The translations under genes were made by a program, and so were the position numbers. A DNA stretch of 64,000 bases, taken from NCBI GenBank assembly GCA_019057385.1, contig JAHQJS010000004.1, forward strand, positions 1,137,068 to 1,201,067. The letters run 5' to 3'. This document shows positions 4,625 to 41,040 of this stretch, one piece after another; the stretch's first letter is position 1, and the number at the start of each line of letters is the position of its first letter. A model generated the notes under the pieces. That model was given only the letters and a program-made list of their open reading frames with translations, was not told the origin of the DNA and made no database searches. Source of the stretch: Candidatus Borrarchaeum weybense. Lineage in GTDB: Archaea > Asgardarchaeota > Sifarchaeia > Borrarchaeales > Borrarchaeaceae.

Positions 4625-6085
4625 ATGCAACGACACAAGAATGCCCCATAGCTTGAACTTGGGGATGAATTGTATCAAGCGATTACGTTTATAACTTCTT
4701 GAAAATTTTGCTGAGTTTATAAACAAGGATATAGTAAGTAGAGTGAGAATCTGTATGCTTAATCATTATCTGGATAGTTTAGTTTGTGCGGAGAACTTGT
4801 GTCATGTCAATTAAGAACGAGCGGATCAAAGTTACATTGAAGGACACTAAGGAGCGCCGTAAACAGATGGAATGTCGGGTGTATACCGTCAAGCTTGACC
4901 ACTCGCACTTAAACCAAAACTCCTTAAAAATCTTAAAGCGATTATTCTTGGAAGCGAAATGGCTGTACAATTATTGTGTGGGTCATCCTGATGTGTTTTC
5001 TATTGATGATAAAATAAAGGCCGTGCCGGTGAAGGTTAAAGACCAGTTTGAACTTCGCCAATTAAGGCAGTTATCGTCACACATGCGTCAGAGCATCATT
5101 ACGCGCACCCAACAGAATATCCGTGGCTTAGCGCGTGTGAAAGCCAAGGGTCACAAAGTTGGACGGTTGAAGTTTAAGTCGTACGTGAAATCCATCCCGC
5201 TCAAGCAATACGGCAATACCTACAAGCTCATCAACGGTAACTACTTGCAGCTTCAAAGGCTACCACAACAATTGCGTGTCAACGGCTTGGAACAACTGCC
5301 ATCTAATTGTGAATGTGCCAATGCTACCTTACTGCACCAGCATGGCGATTATTACGTGGCGATAACTACCTATACCTCACGAGAACACAAACCAGCGATG
5401 GTAGTGCCAGCAAAATCAATTGGCATTGATTTTGGGGTAAAGAATCAGTTATCGCTGTCGAACGGCGTACATATATGATACAAGATACCAGTTACGCGCC
5501 GTATCAAGCAGTTGTGTAAGAAATTAAGTTGTAAACAGTATCGCAGTAAGAATTGGTGGAAAACGCTCTATAAGTTGCTCAAAGCCTACGCCAAAACCAC
5601 CAATATTAAACGGGACATTCGCAATAAACTGGTTCATTTCCTCGCCACCAATTTCCAAATGGTGTGTTATCAAAATGAGAATTTAGGCGCCTGGCAACGC
5701 CTGTGGGGTAGAAGAATGCTGTCAACCAGCCTGGGTGGAATCATACGCATGCTTGAAGTCAAGGTGCATACACCGGTGGAAATTGACCGTTTCTTTCCCT
5801 CTACCAAGATTTGTTCGCGTTGCGGTCATCAGCGGACTATGAGTTTAGAAGAACGCACCTATGTGTGTCAGCATTGCGGTCTGGTGATAGACCGTGATTA
5901 TAACAGCAGTTGTGTGCTAGAACACGAAGGTCATAAAATACTAGGTAGGGGACCTACCGAAGTTACGCCTGCGGAGACTAATACCTCTACCTTAACGTTG
6001 GAATATCTGAACCAGATAGCCTACGTTAAGGCAAGTATGGTCGCAGAAACAGGAAGCCTCACCGCTTTCGCATGAGGTAGTTCAC
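4625..6085 (+). mobile_element. IS200/IS605-family (IS1341-type) tnpB-only element 1
   Basis: TTTAC at 4620-4624, LE hairpin cccca..tgggg, RE gcctca..tgaggtagttcac; empty site restores the host reading frame. Confidence 0.85.
4804..6075 (+). pseudogene. tnpB: TnpB interrupted by in-frame TGA (5476-5478)
   Basis: ORFs 4786-5478 and 5512-6075 are in the same frame; GIDFG, CSRC..CQHC, DRDYN motifs. Confidence 0.85.
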
Positions 6086-14294: not shown

Positions 14295-14607
14295 GTGAGT
14301 TACCTCGTGTTAAAGCTTTGAGGCTTCCTGCTTCAACGACAGACTCGATCCCCTGGCGGGTTACGGAGGTCTTATCTCCACAGGCTTAAATTCCCTACGC
14401 CCCGTAGGTACTGCTAACGATGGGATACAATCGGAGTCTGCACCTTGTCTGCAAGTGTGCGAGTTATCCCTCCAATTGTTATTGATACCTTCCTCATTCC
14501 ACCTATATAACTTGAGGGAGACCCCTCAATGCACGTGATGAAAGTGAACTCTCACTCACGCAATTCATCACCACGCTGATGCGGTGGTGCTTTCTTGCTT
14601 AGCAATT
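14295..14607 (-). mobile_element. Non-autonomous IS200/IS605 mini-element A carrying a TnpB omega-RNA, no ORF
   Basis: TTTAC flank (14608-14612), LE hairpin, TATA, and a ~118-nt RE region nearly identical to 26938-27056. Confidence 0.85.
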
Positions 14608-14680
14608 GTAAAACTTCAAGAGAATAACGAGTGAAATTTCTACACTCCTGTCTCCATTCTTTAAATAATATTTTTTTAGT

Positions 14681-15985: not shown

Positions 15986-17370
15986 GAGTTGTAGTAGGAA
16001 GTCCCCTTCCGACAAGTGGGGGATGAAAGCCGCTGGTCTTATATAGACTTTTTGATTATTACTATTAGTAAAGAGTTCTACGTGAAGTCTATGAAACTCA
16101 CACAGAAAATCAGGATCTTTCCGACACCAGAACAGGAAACAGTTCTCTGGAAGCTCTCAGAGAAGTGCAGACTCATCTATAACTTTGCCCTTGCCGAAAG
16201 AAGGGACGCCTATAGAACCGGGGCAAAGAGGGTGAACTATCGCACACAGCAAAACAGCCTACCGCTCATCAAAGAACAATTCCCAGAGTATAAGTGGGTG
16301 TATTCTAAGGTCTTACAGTTTGCTCTCAGGTCGTTGGCTGCTGATTACAAGTCGTTTTTTGCCCTTCGAAAAAATGGGTGCGCCGATGCTTGTCCCCCGC
16401 GATTCAAAGGAAAACAGTACTTCACCACGATGATGTATAACCAGTCGGGATTCAAGCTCGAACCTGGAAAAATTACCTTTTCCCATAAATACAATGATGT
16501 ACCTTTGGTGTTTGTCATCCCGGACAAATTTTCTTTTGACGATAAGCAGGTAAAACAGGTCGCCATCTCTTCATACAGAAGTAAATATTTTGTGACTATC
16601 ACTTATGAGTTGGAAGAACCCCGCTATGTGGATAACGGTCTGTACCAAGCCATAGACTTAGGAATTACCCACATCGTTACGGCAGTCAATTCCCAGGGTA
16701 AGTTCTTGGTGGTAGAAAATCAGCGCCCAGACAAATATTGGAATCCGAAAATAGCCAAAGTACAATCACGGAAGGACAAATGCAAGAAATTCAGCAACCG
16801 GTGGAAACTGCTAAACGAGATCAAACACAAATACGAGCGAAAGCGTGATAATCAGACGCGTGATTTCCAACATAAGCTCAGCAAGAAACTGGTGGAAAAC
16901 ACTAAAGCCAACACCATTATTATTGGCGAACTGGAAGTTAAACACATGGCACATTCGAATAAGGTGCCAAAACACATTAGACATGGGTTAAACCGCGCCA
17001 CGCAGAACAGCGGGGCGCTGGGACGGTTCGTGCATTTTCTAACCTACAAATCGAGGCGAGTAGGTAAAAGGACAATAGAAATTGACGAACGAAACTCGAC
17101 TAAAGCATGCTGGGTGTGCGGAAAACTGCATTCAATGCCAATTTGGAAACGAATTATGAGTTGTGACTGTGGTAACGTGATAGAAAGGGATAAAAATAGT
17201 GCGATCATCCTGATGAAACGTTACCTATCACAAAATGCCAAGTGGACGGGCTATCGGGTGTTTCTCGATAATCTGCGACACACAGCCAAATGTAAAACGA
17301 AAGTTTCTCCCGCAGTAGGGAGTTAGGAGGACTCGCAGGAAGCCCCATCCGTCAGGATGAGGTAGTTCAC
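15986..17370 (+). mobile_element. IS200/IS605-family tnpB-only element 2 (left boundary approximate)
   Basis: LE hairpin tccccttccgacaagtggggga; RE catccgtcaggatgaggtagttcac. Confidence 0.85.
16091..17326 (+). CDS. tnpB: TnpB RNA-guided nuclease
   Basis: HTH N-terminus, AIDLG, CWVC..CDC, ERDKNSA; canonical RuvC-II Glu position reads IIGEL, with a candidate alternative Glu in IDERNST. Confidence 0.9.
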   Translation: MKLTQKIRIFPTPEQETVLWKLSEKCRLIYNFALAERRDAYRTGAKRVNYRTQQNSLPLIKEQFPEYKWVYSKVLQFALRSLAADYKSFFALRKNGCADACPPRFKGKQYFTTMMYNQSGFKLEPGKITFSHKYNDVPLVFVIPDKFSFDDKQVKQVAISSYRSKYFVTITYELEEPRYVDNGLYQAIDLGITHIVTAVNSQGKFLVVENQRPDKYWNPKIAKVQSRKDKCKKFSNRWKLLNEIKHKYERKRDNQTRDFQHKLSKKLVENTKANTIIIGELEVKHMAHSNKVPKHIRHGLNRATQNSGALGRFVHFLTYKSRRVGKRTIEIDERNSTKACWVCGKLHSMPIWKRIMSCDCGNVIERDKNSAIILMKRYLSQNAKWTGYRVFLDNLRHTAKCKTKVSPAVGS

Positions 17371-23872: not shown

Positions 23873-24614
23873 AATCCAAGTTCAAGGCATATCAAAAACA
23901 TTTCAGTCATTAGAAATACTTCAGGATATTTCTTTCAATATATTTAAAGAAGAAATCGTTTGCCTTGTTGGACCTACTGGGTGTGGAAAAACTACACTTA
24001 CTCGTATTATGGCGTGTCTTGAGAAACCAGATACGGGGCGCATATTACTTGATGGCGAAGAAATATCAGTACCCGCAAATAAGATCGGATATGTACCTCA
24101 AGGTGAATCTTTGTTGCCTTGGCGCAATGTTTTCGAAAACATTTCTTTGGGTCTTGAAATTTCAAAAGAGGCACCGCAAAATCATAAAGAACGGATTTAT
24201 GATCTTTGTCGATGGATAGGATTAGCTGGTTTTGAAAAAACGTACCCAAAGGATCTAAGTGGTGGAATGAAACAAAAAGTTGCCTTTGCAAGAACTTTAA
24301 TTGTAGATCCTGTTATCCTCCTCTTGGATGAACCATTTGTTGCCCTAGATGCACAAACGCGTAATTATATGCAATCAGAATTACTTAGAATCAAGAAAAA
24401 ATTCAAAAAAACGATTTTTTTTGTAACACATAATATTGATGAGTCTGTTTTTTTGGCAAATCGTGTTGTCGTTCTTTCAAAGAGACCTGCGTGCATTAAA
24501 AAGATTGTAACAATTCCTTTAGAGTATCCTCGAGAGAGAACTAGTCTAGAATTCAACAATATTCGGAAAGAGATTTTAAATTCACTTGATTTCATTCCAT
24601 TACAAGGTCATTAA
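23859..24614 (+). CDS. ABC transporter ATP-binding protein (NitT/TauT family)
   Basis: GPTGCGKT, LSGGMKQ, LLLDEPF, VTH. Confidence 0.93.
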   Translation: MKSIKIQVQGISKTFQSLEILQDISFNIFKEEIVCLVGPTGCGKTTLTRIMACLEKPDTGRILLDGEEISVPANKIGYVPQGESLLPWRNVFENISLGLEISKEAPQNHKERIYDLCRWIGLAGFEKTYPKDLSGGMKQKVAFARTLIVDPVILLLDEPFVALDAQTRNYMQSELLRIKKKFKKTIFFVTHNIDESVFLANRVVVLSKRPACIKKIVTIPLEYPRERTSLEFNNIRKEILNSLDFIPLQGH

Positions 24615-24750
24615 TTCCTGTTTTTTTTGAATCGGCAGAAATCACATCTCATACGAGGAGTTGTGTTTACATGAGTTTATTTCAATGACTATTTTTATAG
24701 AAACGCATAAATGCTTGAAAAACTAATATATCAAATCCAATTTCACAAAG

Positions 24751-25035
24751 GTCAACTACCCCTCCCTTTCGGAAGGGACTTGAAAAAGTCTCTGTAGAGG
24801 GGTAGGAGATTAGCCTGAGTGATGTCTCCTTCAGGGCGGAGGCAAATGAACTACGTTCGGGGCTGAGTGTCTGAAAATCACCCCGGAATGCTCCTCAAGT
24901 TCCGGGCTCTGAAAGACATGGTGGACGACCCAGGTCGCTATCCTGAGACCTGCACCATCATCATGTCCGGTGCCTGCCCCAACATTGGCGATGAGGACCT
25001 ACCCGCGGATGCGGAGCTGACCTTTACAGGTCGTT
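24751..25035 (+). ncRNA. IscB-type omega RNA (HEARO) scaffold, standalone (3' end approximate)
   Basis: GTCAACTACCCC 5' hairpin, GATTAGCCT, CTACGTT, ATGCTCCTCAAGTTCC..CTCT, AACATTGGCGATGAGG; pseudoknot-capable CCTCA/TGAGG. Confidence 0.8.
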
Positions 25036-25156
25036 AAATATAGTTTGGGGCACCTGCTCTTGTCCCAGCAAAAAGGGGAGGTGCCCACCACTTTACAAAG
25101 AAATATACCGCAATTCATCTCCACCCTAGCGGATGGAGTCTTCTTGCGGAGGTTAG
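24751..25156 (+). mobile_element. 406-bp non-autonomous IscB-type IS200/IS605 mini-element without iscB
   Basis: Far end (25110-25156), reverse complemented, matches the LE of tnpB element 3 (ctccgcaagaagac..gatgaa.tgcg); followed by ATAAA. Confidence 0.8.
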
Positions 25157-25245
25157 ATAAAAATGGTCTTCGCTTGTATAAATAAGTTAATCGCTCACAA
25201 GAAATCTTCCCATTAACTTTGTGTTTTTTCTTAGGAGATACCAAA

Positions 25246-25362
25246 ATGAGTGAAGATGAAATGAAATGTCCGAAATGTGGTGGGCCAGTTGCCATTCGCA
25301 AAATTTCATTGAATAAAGTACAAATTTCCTGCGAAAGATGTGGACATACATGGGTAGAGTGA
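25246..25362 (+). CDS. 38-aa zinc-finger microprotein (CPKC-x17-CERC)
   Basis: AGGAG SD; MSEDEMKCPKCGGPVAIRKISLNKVQISCERCGHTWVE; not in the ORF track. Confidence 0.75.
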   Translation: MSEDEMKCPKCGGPVAIRKISLNKVQISCERCGHTWVE

Positions 25363-39627: not shown

Positions 39628-39674
39628 ATCGCCTTTCAGGGAAAGTCAATATTTCGACGAATAAAACTTTTTAT

Positions 39675-41040
39675 AGTACTCTCCGCAAGAAGACCCCCCA
39701 ATGTGTTGGGGGGATGAAGTGCGTGTTTTACGTGTTTCACTTTCACCGTAGTGTCCCCCAGCTTTAAATAGGTATTTGCGTATAGTAACTCTCGTGACAT
39801 GAATTTCAGGGGAACACAGGGATACGTATGATGACACGGACTTACAAATATCGCGTGTATCCAACCACACAACAGGCAACTACGTTAACGCAATGGCTTA
39901 CTACCTGTCGTCTGTTGTATAATAACGCTCTGGCAGCGCGAAAAGACGCTTGGCACACTCACCAACAATCAGTTACCTATTATGAACAAGCCACCCAACT
40001 ACAAGTTGCTAAACAGACCAACCCGTGTTTGAAGGTGGTGCATTCTCAGGTACTCCAAGATACACTCAGAAGACTGGATAAGACCTTCAGCAACTTTTTT
40101 AGGCGTCTTAAGAAGGGGGAAAAAGCCGGTTACCCACGATTTAAAGGAAAATACCGGTATGATTCCTTCACGTACCCGCAAAGTGGGTTCTCCCTCGAAA
40201 AGAACAACAAGAAACTCCGGCTCTCGAAAATTGGAAGTATCAACATTACACTCCACCGCCTTATCCCCTCTGAAGGAGTGATCAAGACCTGTACTATTAC
40301 ACGCGATGTTGACCACTGGTATGCCTGCTTTACAGTAGCACTGCCTGATCCCGAGCCTGAGTCTCAGCAGAGAGGAATAAAGAAGGCGATAGGGGTGGAT
40401 GTTGGGTTAAAGAGTTTACTTACGTTTAATAACGGAGATACCATAGCTAACCCCCGTTGGTTAAGACACTCGGAGAAGAAAGTAGCGAAAGAACAGAGAA
40501 GAAAAGATAGGAGGCAGAAAGGGTCACATAACCGTCACAAACAGAACACAAAGGTAGCACAGGTACACCAGAAGATACGTAACCAACGGAAGGACTTTCA
40601 TCACAAGCTTAGTCGAACACTGGTCGATGCTTATGACCTAATAGTGTATGAGAATCTCAAGATCACCAACATGGTGAAGAACCATCATGTAGCGAAGTCG
40701 ATTAGTGACGCCGGCTGGGGGCAACTTATGTGTTTTACGGAGTACAAAGCGGAGGAAGCTGGTACTCTAGTAGAATATGTGAGTGCCTATAATACCACAC
40801 AACTGTGTAGTAGGTGTGGGAAGCTGGTACCGAAAACACTAGCAACTCGCATCCACAGCTGTCCTTACTGTGTCCTTGATGTAGCACGAGATCATAACTC
40901 GGCCATCACCATTTTACACCGATCACGCTACTATGTAGCATCACGATCAGGGCAGGAACTGTCCGTCGAGCCTGTTTGACATGTCCCGTTGGGGAATGGA
41001 TGATTCAGGAAGCCACCCTACTTGTAGGGTGGTAGTTCAC
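39675..41040 (+). mobile_element. IS200/IS605-family tnpB-only element 3
   Basis: TTTAT at 39670-39674; LE hairpin ccccccaa..ttgggggg; RE ccaccctac..gtagggtggtagttcac. Confidence 0.88.
39828..40979 (+). CDS. tnpB: TnpB RNA-guided nuclease, canonical D-E-D triad
   Basis: YKYRVYPT, GVDVG, VYENL, CSRC..CPYC, RDHNSA. Confidence 0.95.
   Translation: MMTRTYKYRVYPTTQQATTLTQWLTTCRLLYNNALAARKDAWHTHQQSVTYYEQATQLQVAKQTNPCLKVVHSQVLQDTLRRLDKTFSNFFRRLKKGEKAGYPRFKGKYRYDSFTYPQSGFSLEKNNKKLRLSKIGSINITLHRLIPSEGVIKTCTITRDVDHWYACFTVALPDPEPESQQRGIKKAIGVDVGLKSLLTFNNGDTIANPRWLRHSEKKVAKEQRRKDRRQKGSHNRHKQNTKVAQVHQKIRNQRKDFHHKLSRTLVDAYDLIVYENLKITNMVKNHHVAKSISDAGWGQLMCFTEYKAEEAGTLVEYVSAYNTTQLCSRCGKLVPKTLATRIHSCPYCVLDVARDHNSAITILHRSRYYVASRSGQELSVEPV

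Follow-up and report, generated by a model that had tools for sequence, protein, structure and literature searches.

HEARO is the omega RNA of IscB, a nuclease ancestral to Cas9, and Asgard archaea are the archaeal group closest to eukaryotes. The ISC elements, which bear iscB, were defined by Kapitonov, Makarova and Koonin in 2016 (PMC4810608), with archaeal cases that include Methanosarcina lacustris; they have termini in common with IS605/TnpB elements and insert at specific targets without duplication (PMC4810608). In addition to omega RNAs adjoining iscB, standalone omega RNAs functioning with IscB have been reported by Altae-Tran et al. 2021, as cited in Hirano et al. 2022 (PMC9581776). 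According to Meers et al. (2023, bioRxiv 10.1101/2023.03.14.532601), the omega RNA of IscB lies at the right end of the transposon, reads inward, takes its guide from outside and needs transcription from outside the element. The same work states that protein-less PATE-like elements 'often encode omega RNAs' for use in trans. IS200/IS605 is the commonest IS family in archaea, including Asgardarchaeota. A study on Asgard mobile elements (Valentin-Alvarado 2024) does not mention IscB, TnpB or HEARO.

The window analysed here, i.e., the whole stretch of 64,000 nucleotides from the Asgard archaeon Candidatus Borrarchaeum weybense, contains a protein-less element at 24751–25156 (Table 1; positions given without a contig name are those of the window). 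The best reading of the element is that it keeps a right end with an overlapping IscB omega-RNA gene, a hairpin module that replaces iscB and a left-end palindrome. With a probability of roughly 70%, it is a PATE/MITE-like non-autonomous member of the ISC (IS200/IS605) elements, whose RNA could act in trans by loading the cognate IscB, so that the vacated site is cut again.

Table 1. Coordinates of the features of the element and its surroundings in the window.
Feature	Positions	Strand	Evidence
406-bp element, read as non-autonomous ISC (IS200/IS605-type)	24751–25156	+	Copy alignment, empty sites, outside contigs
HEARO/IscB omega-RNA scaffold	24751–25002	+	RF02033, 68.5 bits, E 1.5e-13, model 1–211 of 211
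Pair of 3′ omega-RNA hairpins not covered by the Rfam model (25003–25014, 25019–25032)	25003–25035	+	Conserved with the iscB-linked sibling
GC hairpin, remodelled module specific to protein-less elements, at the place of iscB	25048–25086	+	Fold; 8 + 5 bp stem
Subterminal imperfect palindrome of the far (left) transposon end; element ends at 25156	25108–25149	-	Single-stranded DNA fold, z −3.9
ATAAA target pentanucleotide (TTTAT on the transposon top strand), predicted 3′ TAM	25157–25161	+	After all four full copies
TATA-like box TTTTTATA in host intergenic DNA, putative outside promoter for guide and scaffold	24692–24699	+	Read in the sequence, 52 nt before the scaffold
5′ flank supplying the putative guide (…TCAAATCCAATTTCACAAAG)	24731–24750	+	Unique host sequence abutting the element
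TTTAT (39670–39674) and left end of a TnpB element, homologous to the far end	39670–39725	+	

Insertion Site and Copies of the Element

The element has an ABC-transporter operon on one side and a small zinc-ribbon gene on the other, and its transposon top strand is the minus strand of the window. Its G+C content is 52–59%, compared with 27–31% in the intergenic flanks. The ORFs overlapping it are all short (46 and 56 aa on the plus strand, 100 aa on the minus strand), and iscB is not among them. Four full-length copies are present in the genome, with identities of 100, 96, 90 and 85%, together with one partial copy. All four full copies can be aligned from GTCAACTACCCC to GCGGAGGTTAG, with similarity beginning exactly at GTCAAC (24751); the sequences to the left of the copies are unrelated to each other, and each copy is followed by ATAAA(A).

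In two genomes of the same genus, G004 and G002, the flanks are directly joined as an empty site (…CACAAAG|ATAAAAA…). In G004, the left flank is 96% identical and runs up to C45:16683, and the right flank, which is 88% identical, begins at C45:16682. Across the joint, the alignment shows …TCCAATTTCACAAAG|ATAAAAAAGG…; ATAAA is present in this empty site as well, and nothing is duplicated. The joint in G002 falls at the same point, with ACAAA at that position. Because the flanks of both genomes are joined exactly there, the 406-bp element is a precise insertion beside ATAAA without target duplication, which is the signature of IS200/IS605-type transposition. An initial annotation of this DNA, made from the letters alone, had given the same length of 406 bp and the ATAAA that follows the element and had proposed a mobile protein-less cassette with both transposon ends; the copy alignment bears out the length and the ATAAA, and the copies, the empty sites and the hairpins found at both ends bear out the cassette, the ends being of the IS200/IS605 type.

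Further copies of the element family were found in the congener G001, and others in unrelated metagenomes. On contigs from unrelated sediment and subsurface studies, cover stops at 24751 and at 25161–25164, with other flanks beyond. One of these outside flank pairs (AAATTACAAATA on the left, GTGACAGATCAAC… on the right) is that of the copy on contig C178 of G001, the flanks of which have no counterpart in the genome studied here. Near-identical copies with different flanks occur in this genome, in congeners and in sediment metagenomes. In the four sequencing runs examined, cover was found on the element alone, with none of the flanks of this copy and no joint across it.

A tandem of two elements was observed on contig C4, where a protein-less sibling (C4:705587–705994, minus strand) ends ~30 nt ahead of the omega scaffold belonging to a full-length iscB element (C4:705319–705554) on the same strand, so that the guide of this iscB element begins right after the ATAAA of the sibling.

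Omega-RNA Scaffold

The initial annotation had described an apparently complete HEARO/omega scaffold from 24751 to ~25035. In agreement with this, the covariance model RF02033 is matched over its full length and followed by two hairpins; in the account of Meers et al. (2023, bioRxiv 10.1101/2023.03.14.532601), RF02033 is a model without the downstream structural elements. The match of 68.5 bits is below the curated gathering score of 83 and is seen only with E-value thresholds, and therefore a default Rfam scan of the whole window with gathering thresholds returned no match. Since the iscB-linked sibling scaffold, which lies directly upstream of an intact iscB, scores equally on RF02033 (67.4 bits), the low score, judged by this comparison, is a trait of the scaffold subtype and no sign of decay. 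Genome-wide, the RF02033 scores of protein-less copies equal those of linked copies and reach up to 134 bits.

Conservation with the iscB-linked sibling reaches element position 295. A consensus fold computed from ten subfamily copies (six without iscB, three with iscB and one partial) has 84 pairs, 7 of which show compensatory changes, and the window copy keeps the helices; these comparisons indicate that the omega scaffold of the window copy is structurally intact. Averaged over all pairs of five complete protein-less copies, the omega part is 92.9% identical, the linker 67.4% and the far end 89.6%. These results fit selection on the RNA and on the far end, and the high conservation could instead reflect recent spread or gene conversion.

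In an alternative explanation, the element is a dead relic that was formed by internal deletion, spread while a matching transposase was present and is now inert, with an RNA that, if made at all, has neither partner nor effect and with conservation that reflects nothing but youth. The copies, at 85–96% identity, are hence fairly young, as this explanation would have it. However, the omega part and the far end are far better conserved than the linker between them, the stems carry compensatory changes, and the family is found with new flanks in several genomes and studies, all of which speak against an inert relic. Taken together with the evidence from the transposase, the guide and the hairpin module given below, the relic explanation is given a minor but appreciable probability.

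Transposon Ends and Transposase

On the minus strand of the window, the far end reads TTTAT|CTAACCTCCGCAAGAAGAC-TCCATCC-GCTA-GGGTGGAG-ATGAATTGCGG, the hairpin being followed by ATGAATTGCG. A TnpB element located elsewhere in the window has a left end that reads TTTAT|AGTACTCTCCGCAAGAAGAC-CCCCCAA-TGTG-TTGGGGGG-ATGAAGTGCG, in the same frame and with compensating changes in the stem. Homology between these two ends, with a TTTAT/ATAAA junction in common, had been recognized in the initial annotation and is supported by the frame found at 39670. The TnpB element contains a tnpB ORF at 39828–40979, in which a TnpB match covers 40716–40913, and its right end is at 41040. A pattern built on the shared end frame detected ~30 more such TnpB-type ends in the genome.

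At the near end, a hairpin (CCCTCCCTTTCGGAAGGG) lies within the first 30 nt of the element, and both ends thus have subterminal hairpins rather than terminal inverted repeats. The terminus of the element, in the sense of the top strand …GGGGTAGTTGAC, is homologous to …GGTAGTTCAC of TnpB elements; the right end of the TnpB element at 41040 is …GGTGGTAGTTCAC, and the terminus of the tnpA-bearing element is …GGGGTAGTTCAC.

Only one Y1_Tnp (tnpA) gene was found in the assembly, which consists of 8 contigs with N runs; it is located at C7:194149–194619 and is followed by a tnpB. The element around it has the right-end terminus in common with the window element, but its left-end palindrome differs and it has no TTTAT. 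A Y1 transposase common to the TnpB elements and the window element would be a reasonable assumption, because both ends of the latter are homologous to TnpB element ends. The sharing of TnpA with TnpB elements proposed at the outset can therefore be retained as far as the homology of the ends goes, while the different left end of the sole tnpA element does not agree with it. The missing match between this left end and that of the window element, i.e., the lack of a matching tnpA in the assembly, speaks for the relic explanation.

Other traces of such elements were also observed. An end of the same architecture, GCAATTCATC-ACCACGC-TGAT-GCGGTGG…CTTTCTTGC…TAAAA, is present at 14559–14610 (plus strand) and is probably where another IS200/IS605-type element, extending to lower coordinates, has its left end. 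As well, the window contains a second TnpB gene at 16016–17326 (436 aa), of the subtype that accompanies the only tnpA of the genome, and a TnpB fragment at 5773–5913. The TnpB zinc-ribbon domain has 41 matches in the genome, 40 of them above the family cut-off.

IscB Genes and Mosaic Origin

In the genome searched (4.18 Mb in 8 contigs with N runs, an unclosed assembly), the covariance model detected 36 HEARO scaffolds, of which 16 adjoin iscB and 20 are without iscB. The RRXRR domain of IscB has 16 matches in the genome, every one of them just downstream of a HEARO match. The initial annotation had supposed an IscB acting in trans, and a candidate partner is indeed found among these 16, namely one intact gene of 409 aa at C6:388164–389390 on the minus strand. 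The omega region directly upstream of this gene (C6:389389–389682) is 94–95% identical to the window element over the first 295 nt. The 409-aa product contains RRXRR and HNH domains, with RuvC-like GVDSG and HPNDA motifs recognized by eye, and its nearest relatives belong to MAGs labelled Candidatus Borrarchaeota (88%) and Hodarchaeota (54%), both of which are Asgard archaea. That the genome encodes a cognate IscB which is intact and shares the predicted TAM is a further point against the relic explanation.

The element of the 409-aa iscB is likewise bordered by ATAAA, but the palindrome preceding it is a different one, CCCTTCCC…GGAAGGGG. Two other iscB elements, with products of 403 and 404 aa, have far ends that match the final ~60 nt of the window element, with identities of 92% for the element at C6:903249 and 90% for that at C4:847245; in both, the matching far end comes directly after the stop codon and the omega RNA is of the main subtype. 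By these alignments, the window element is a mosaic of two ATAAA-type IscB lineages, with the omega part from one and the far end from another. Main-type protein-less copies keep the first six iscB codons (MRVPVI), and the window subtype breaks upstream of the start codon. A single intact parent in this genome was also considered and was rejected, as the iscB element with the matching omega part has another far-end hairpin and the elements with the matching far end have another omega subtype.

A second class of iscB elements (401 aa; e.g., C6:531818, C7:656436 and C3:137099) has a different palindrome at the far end, which nearly repeats the first hairpin of the omega RNA of these elements, and abuts (A/G)TGA(A/G) rather than ATAAA. 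At C6:787599–788402, an iscB is broken by one in-frame TGA, and the far end of this element carries the CCCCCCAAC…GGGAGG palindrome that is typical of TnpB elements.

Hairpin Module of Protein-less Copies

A GC hairpin at the place where iscB would sit had also been pointed out at the beginning, and its stem is confirmed by folding: the 132-nt stretch 25030–25161, which comprises the GC hairpin and the far-end stem, has a z of −3.1. A homologous module of ~70 nt is present between the omega RNA and the left end in 19 of the 20 protein-less copies (the example copies being L027:1383–1452, minus strand, and window 25044–25100). When the module was compared by BLAST with all 16 iscB-linked elements, it remained unmatched, and the far-end part of the queries was matched, as expected. 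The GC hairpin does not derive from iscB.

The module is a long hairpin in two parts, the tip of which is conserved (consensus CCCCUGUCUCCGCAGAAAGGG); the window version has kept the inner stem and lost the outer one. The 19 copies bearing it belong to three omega subtypes and abut two types of target, ATAAA and RTGAR. Among the 151 genomes of the phylum that were searched, the module was found in the five of this genus alone. The cells of the predicted module pairs in 20 distinct copies comprise 333 Watson-Crick, 45 G-U and 7 A-C combinations. As G-U far outnumbers A-C in the stems, the counts favour a structure that would form on the omega-sense strand, i.e., in the transcript. A conserved hairpin module that is specific to protein-less copies and has such a G-U bias is not expected of a dead relic.

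It is possible, and proposed here only tentatively, that the protein-less copies represent a distinct guide-only lineage built on one chassis, composed of the 3′ RNA hairpin module and the left end, onto which the omega scaffolds of at least three IscB lineages were recombined. The module might then act at the RNA level, for instance in 3′-end formation or stability of a trans-acting omega RNA. If true, this guide-only lineage would be a hyperparasite of TnpA and IscB in Asgard archaea that outnumbers its nuclease-bearing relatives.

5′ Flank, Guide and Expression

The TATA-like box and the arithmetic of a start site derived from it are correct as given in the initial annotation. The box is found in the empty sites, identical in G004 and as TTTCTATA in G002, and is therefore host DNA older than the insertion. 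An archaeal start ~25 nt downstream of the box would yield a guide of ~25 nt, the box being a putative promoter. TATA-like hexamers occur at −75 to −40 in 9 of the 36 elements, compared with 8.7% of random genome positions, which is a weak signal as the background is not intergenic.

The genes upstream, on the same strand, form the ABC-transporter operon (binding protein, permease and ATPase, ending at 24614), which is followed by a T8 run at 24622–24630 that probably ends it. Of the 16 linked copies, 11 are co-oriented with the upstream gene; the same applies to 13 of the 20 protein-less copies, a weak bias, but to only 1 of 5 protein-less copies of the window subtype. The subfamily is thus without orientation preference, in line with the relic explanation. 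On the downstream side, the insertion is closely followed by a small zinc-ribbon ORF at 25246–25362 (38 aa counted from ATG), which has a TATA-like TATAAATA ~60 nt before its start; the TTTTTATA box is on the opposite side of the insertion from this gene.

The 5′ end of the scaffold is also the transposon boundary (24751), and the empty sites join at the same base; the guide would thus be drawn from the flank. With an omega RNA that sits at the right end, reads inward and takes its guide from outside, ATAAA is predicted to be the 3′ TAM of the vacated site. A search for targets elsewhere, as suggested in the initial annotation, was negative: none of the 36 elements, the window one included, has a second perfect genome site for its 16-nt guide, and the window guide with ATAAA has 0 matches among the viral contigs of IMG/VR. 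Guides that match their own flank alone fit a homing model, in which the vacated donor site is the sole target, and argue against a defence or regulatory role. The lack of any other target for the guide also counts in favour of a dead relic.

These searches also bear on the explanation that the guides have been domesticated, with protein-less omega RNAs directing IscB against viruses, plasmids or host genes like a scattered primitive CRISPR array, and not serving transposon retention. The number of protein-less scaffolds relative to iscB matches (20 vs 16) and the published trans-acting standalone omega RNAs would be compatible with such a role, but neither a second perfect genome site for any of the guides nor a viral match for the window guide was obtained, and the empty sites show each guide to be the pre-insertion flank, so that guide content follows from the landing site. 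Domestication is thus regarded as very improbable.

Sibling copies are represented by contigs in three metatranscriptome libraries, and one such contig extends over the 5′ border into an outside flank, although none has the flanks of the window copy; contigs of RNA libraries may derive from contaminating DNA and cannot prove transcription.

Proposed Mobility and Maintenance

For the preferred reading, a non-autonomous ISC element with a trans-acting guide RNA, the following cycle can be proposed. A Y1 TnpA acting in trans would move the element as single-stranded DNA, and the same kind of Y1 enzyme might serve TnpB and IscB elements with common ends. Transcription entering from the 5′ flank would produce a guide and scaffold RNA, which the cognate IscB of 409 aa, encoded at another locus, might bind. 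This nuclease would subsequently cut the vacated site, recognized as a guide match followed by ATAAA, and recombination would restore the element. The cassette could thereby exploit both the transposase and the nuclease. Counted against this reading are the different left end of the sole tnpA element, the rarity of co-orientation in the subfamily, the probable terminator upstream and the mosaic build that lacks an intact parent.

Comparison with Known Systems

Elements of this protein-less omega kind have already been described in bacteria, and the window element adds to a known kind and does not constitute a new class. The novelty attributed to it in the initial annotation was overstated, as both standalone omega RNAs and omega-carrying PATEs have been published (PMC9581776; bioRxiv 10.1101/2023.03.14.532601). 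A literature search, itself incomplete, found no paper on IscB-type guide-only elements in Asgard archaea or on the hairpin module. The hairpin module of the protein-less copies, which the literature found does not cover, and the mosaic build are the parts most worth pursuing.

Like the standalone IscB omega RNAs (PMC9581776) and HEARO RNA (RF02033), the window RNA belongs to the same RNA family by covariance model, lies in a genome with many iscB genes without an adjacent one and has a 5′ guide from the flank. It differs from them in coming from an Asgard archaeon, in representing a divergent subtype below the gathering cut-off, and in residing on a complete mini-transposon with an empty-site control. 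It therefore offers a clean natural example, with that control, of an IscB guide-RNA gene moving alone in an Asgard archaeon, as well as a divergent omega-RNA subtype that is compact and for which ATAAA is the predicted TAM.

The PATE-like elements of Meers et al. (2023) likewise have no protein gene, and both of their subterminal palindromic ends are common with nuclease-bearing elements of the genome; the proposal is also the same, i.e., mobilization by TnpA in trans with a nuclease encoded elsewhere. In their PATE passage, however, TnpB is the nuclease named in trans, whereas the window RNA is of the IscB type, at the right end and with an outside guide. Moreover, compared with those PATEs, the protein-less copies of the window family have a conserved hairpin module of their own, which is absent from nuclease-bearing copies by BLAST.

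As has been described for ISC transposons (PMC4810608), the IscB elements here are without tnpA, have termini like those of co-resident IS605/TnpB elements and insert at a short target without duplication. The ISC elements treated there bear iscB, whereas the window element has lost it, and the targets are ATAAA/TTTAT here compared with GT|GA or N|ATGA among the targets in Table 1 of that source. In this genome, the 20 orphan scaffolds, set against 16 iscB matches, support a view already published, by which OMEGA systems are made up of modules (transposase, nuclease and guide RNA) that can be separated from each other.
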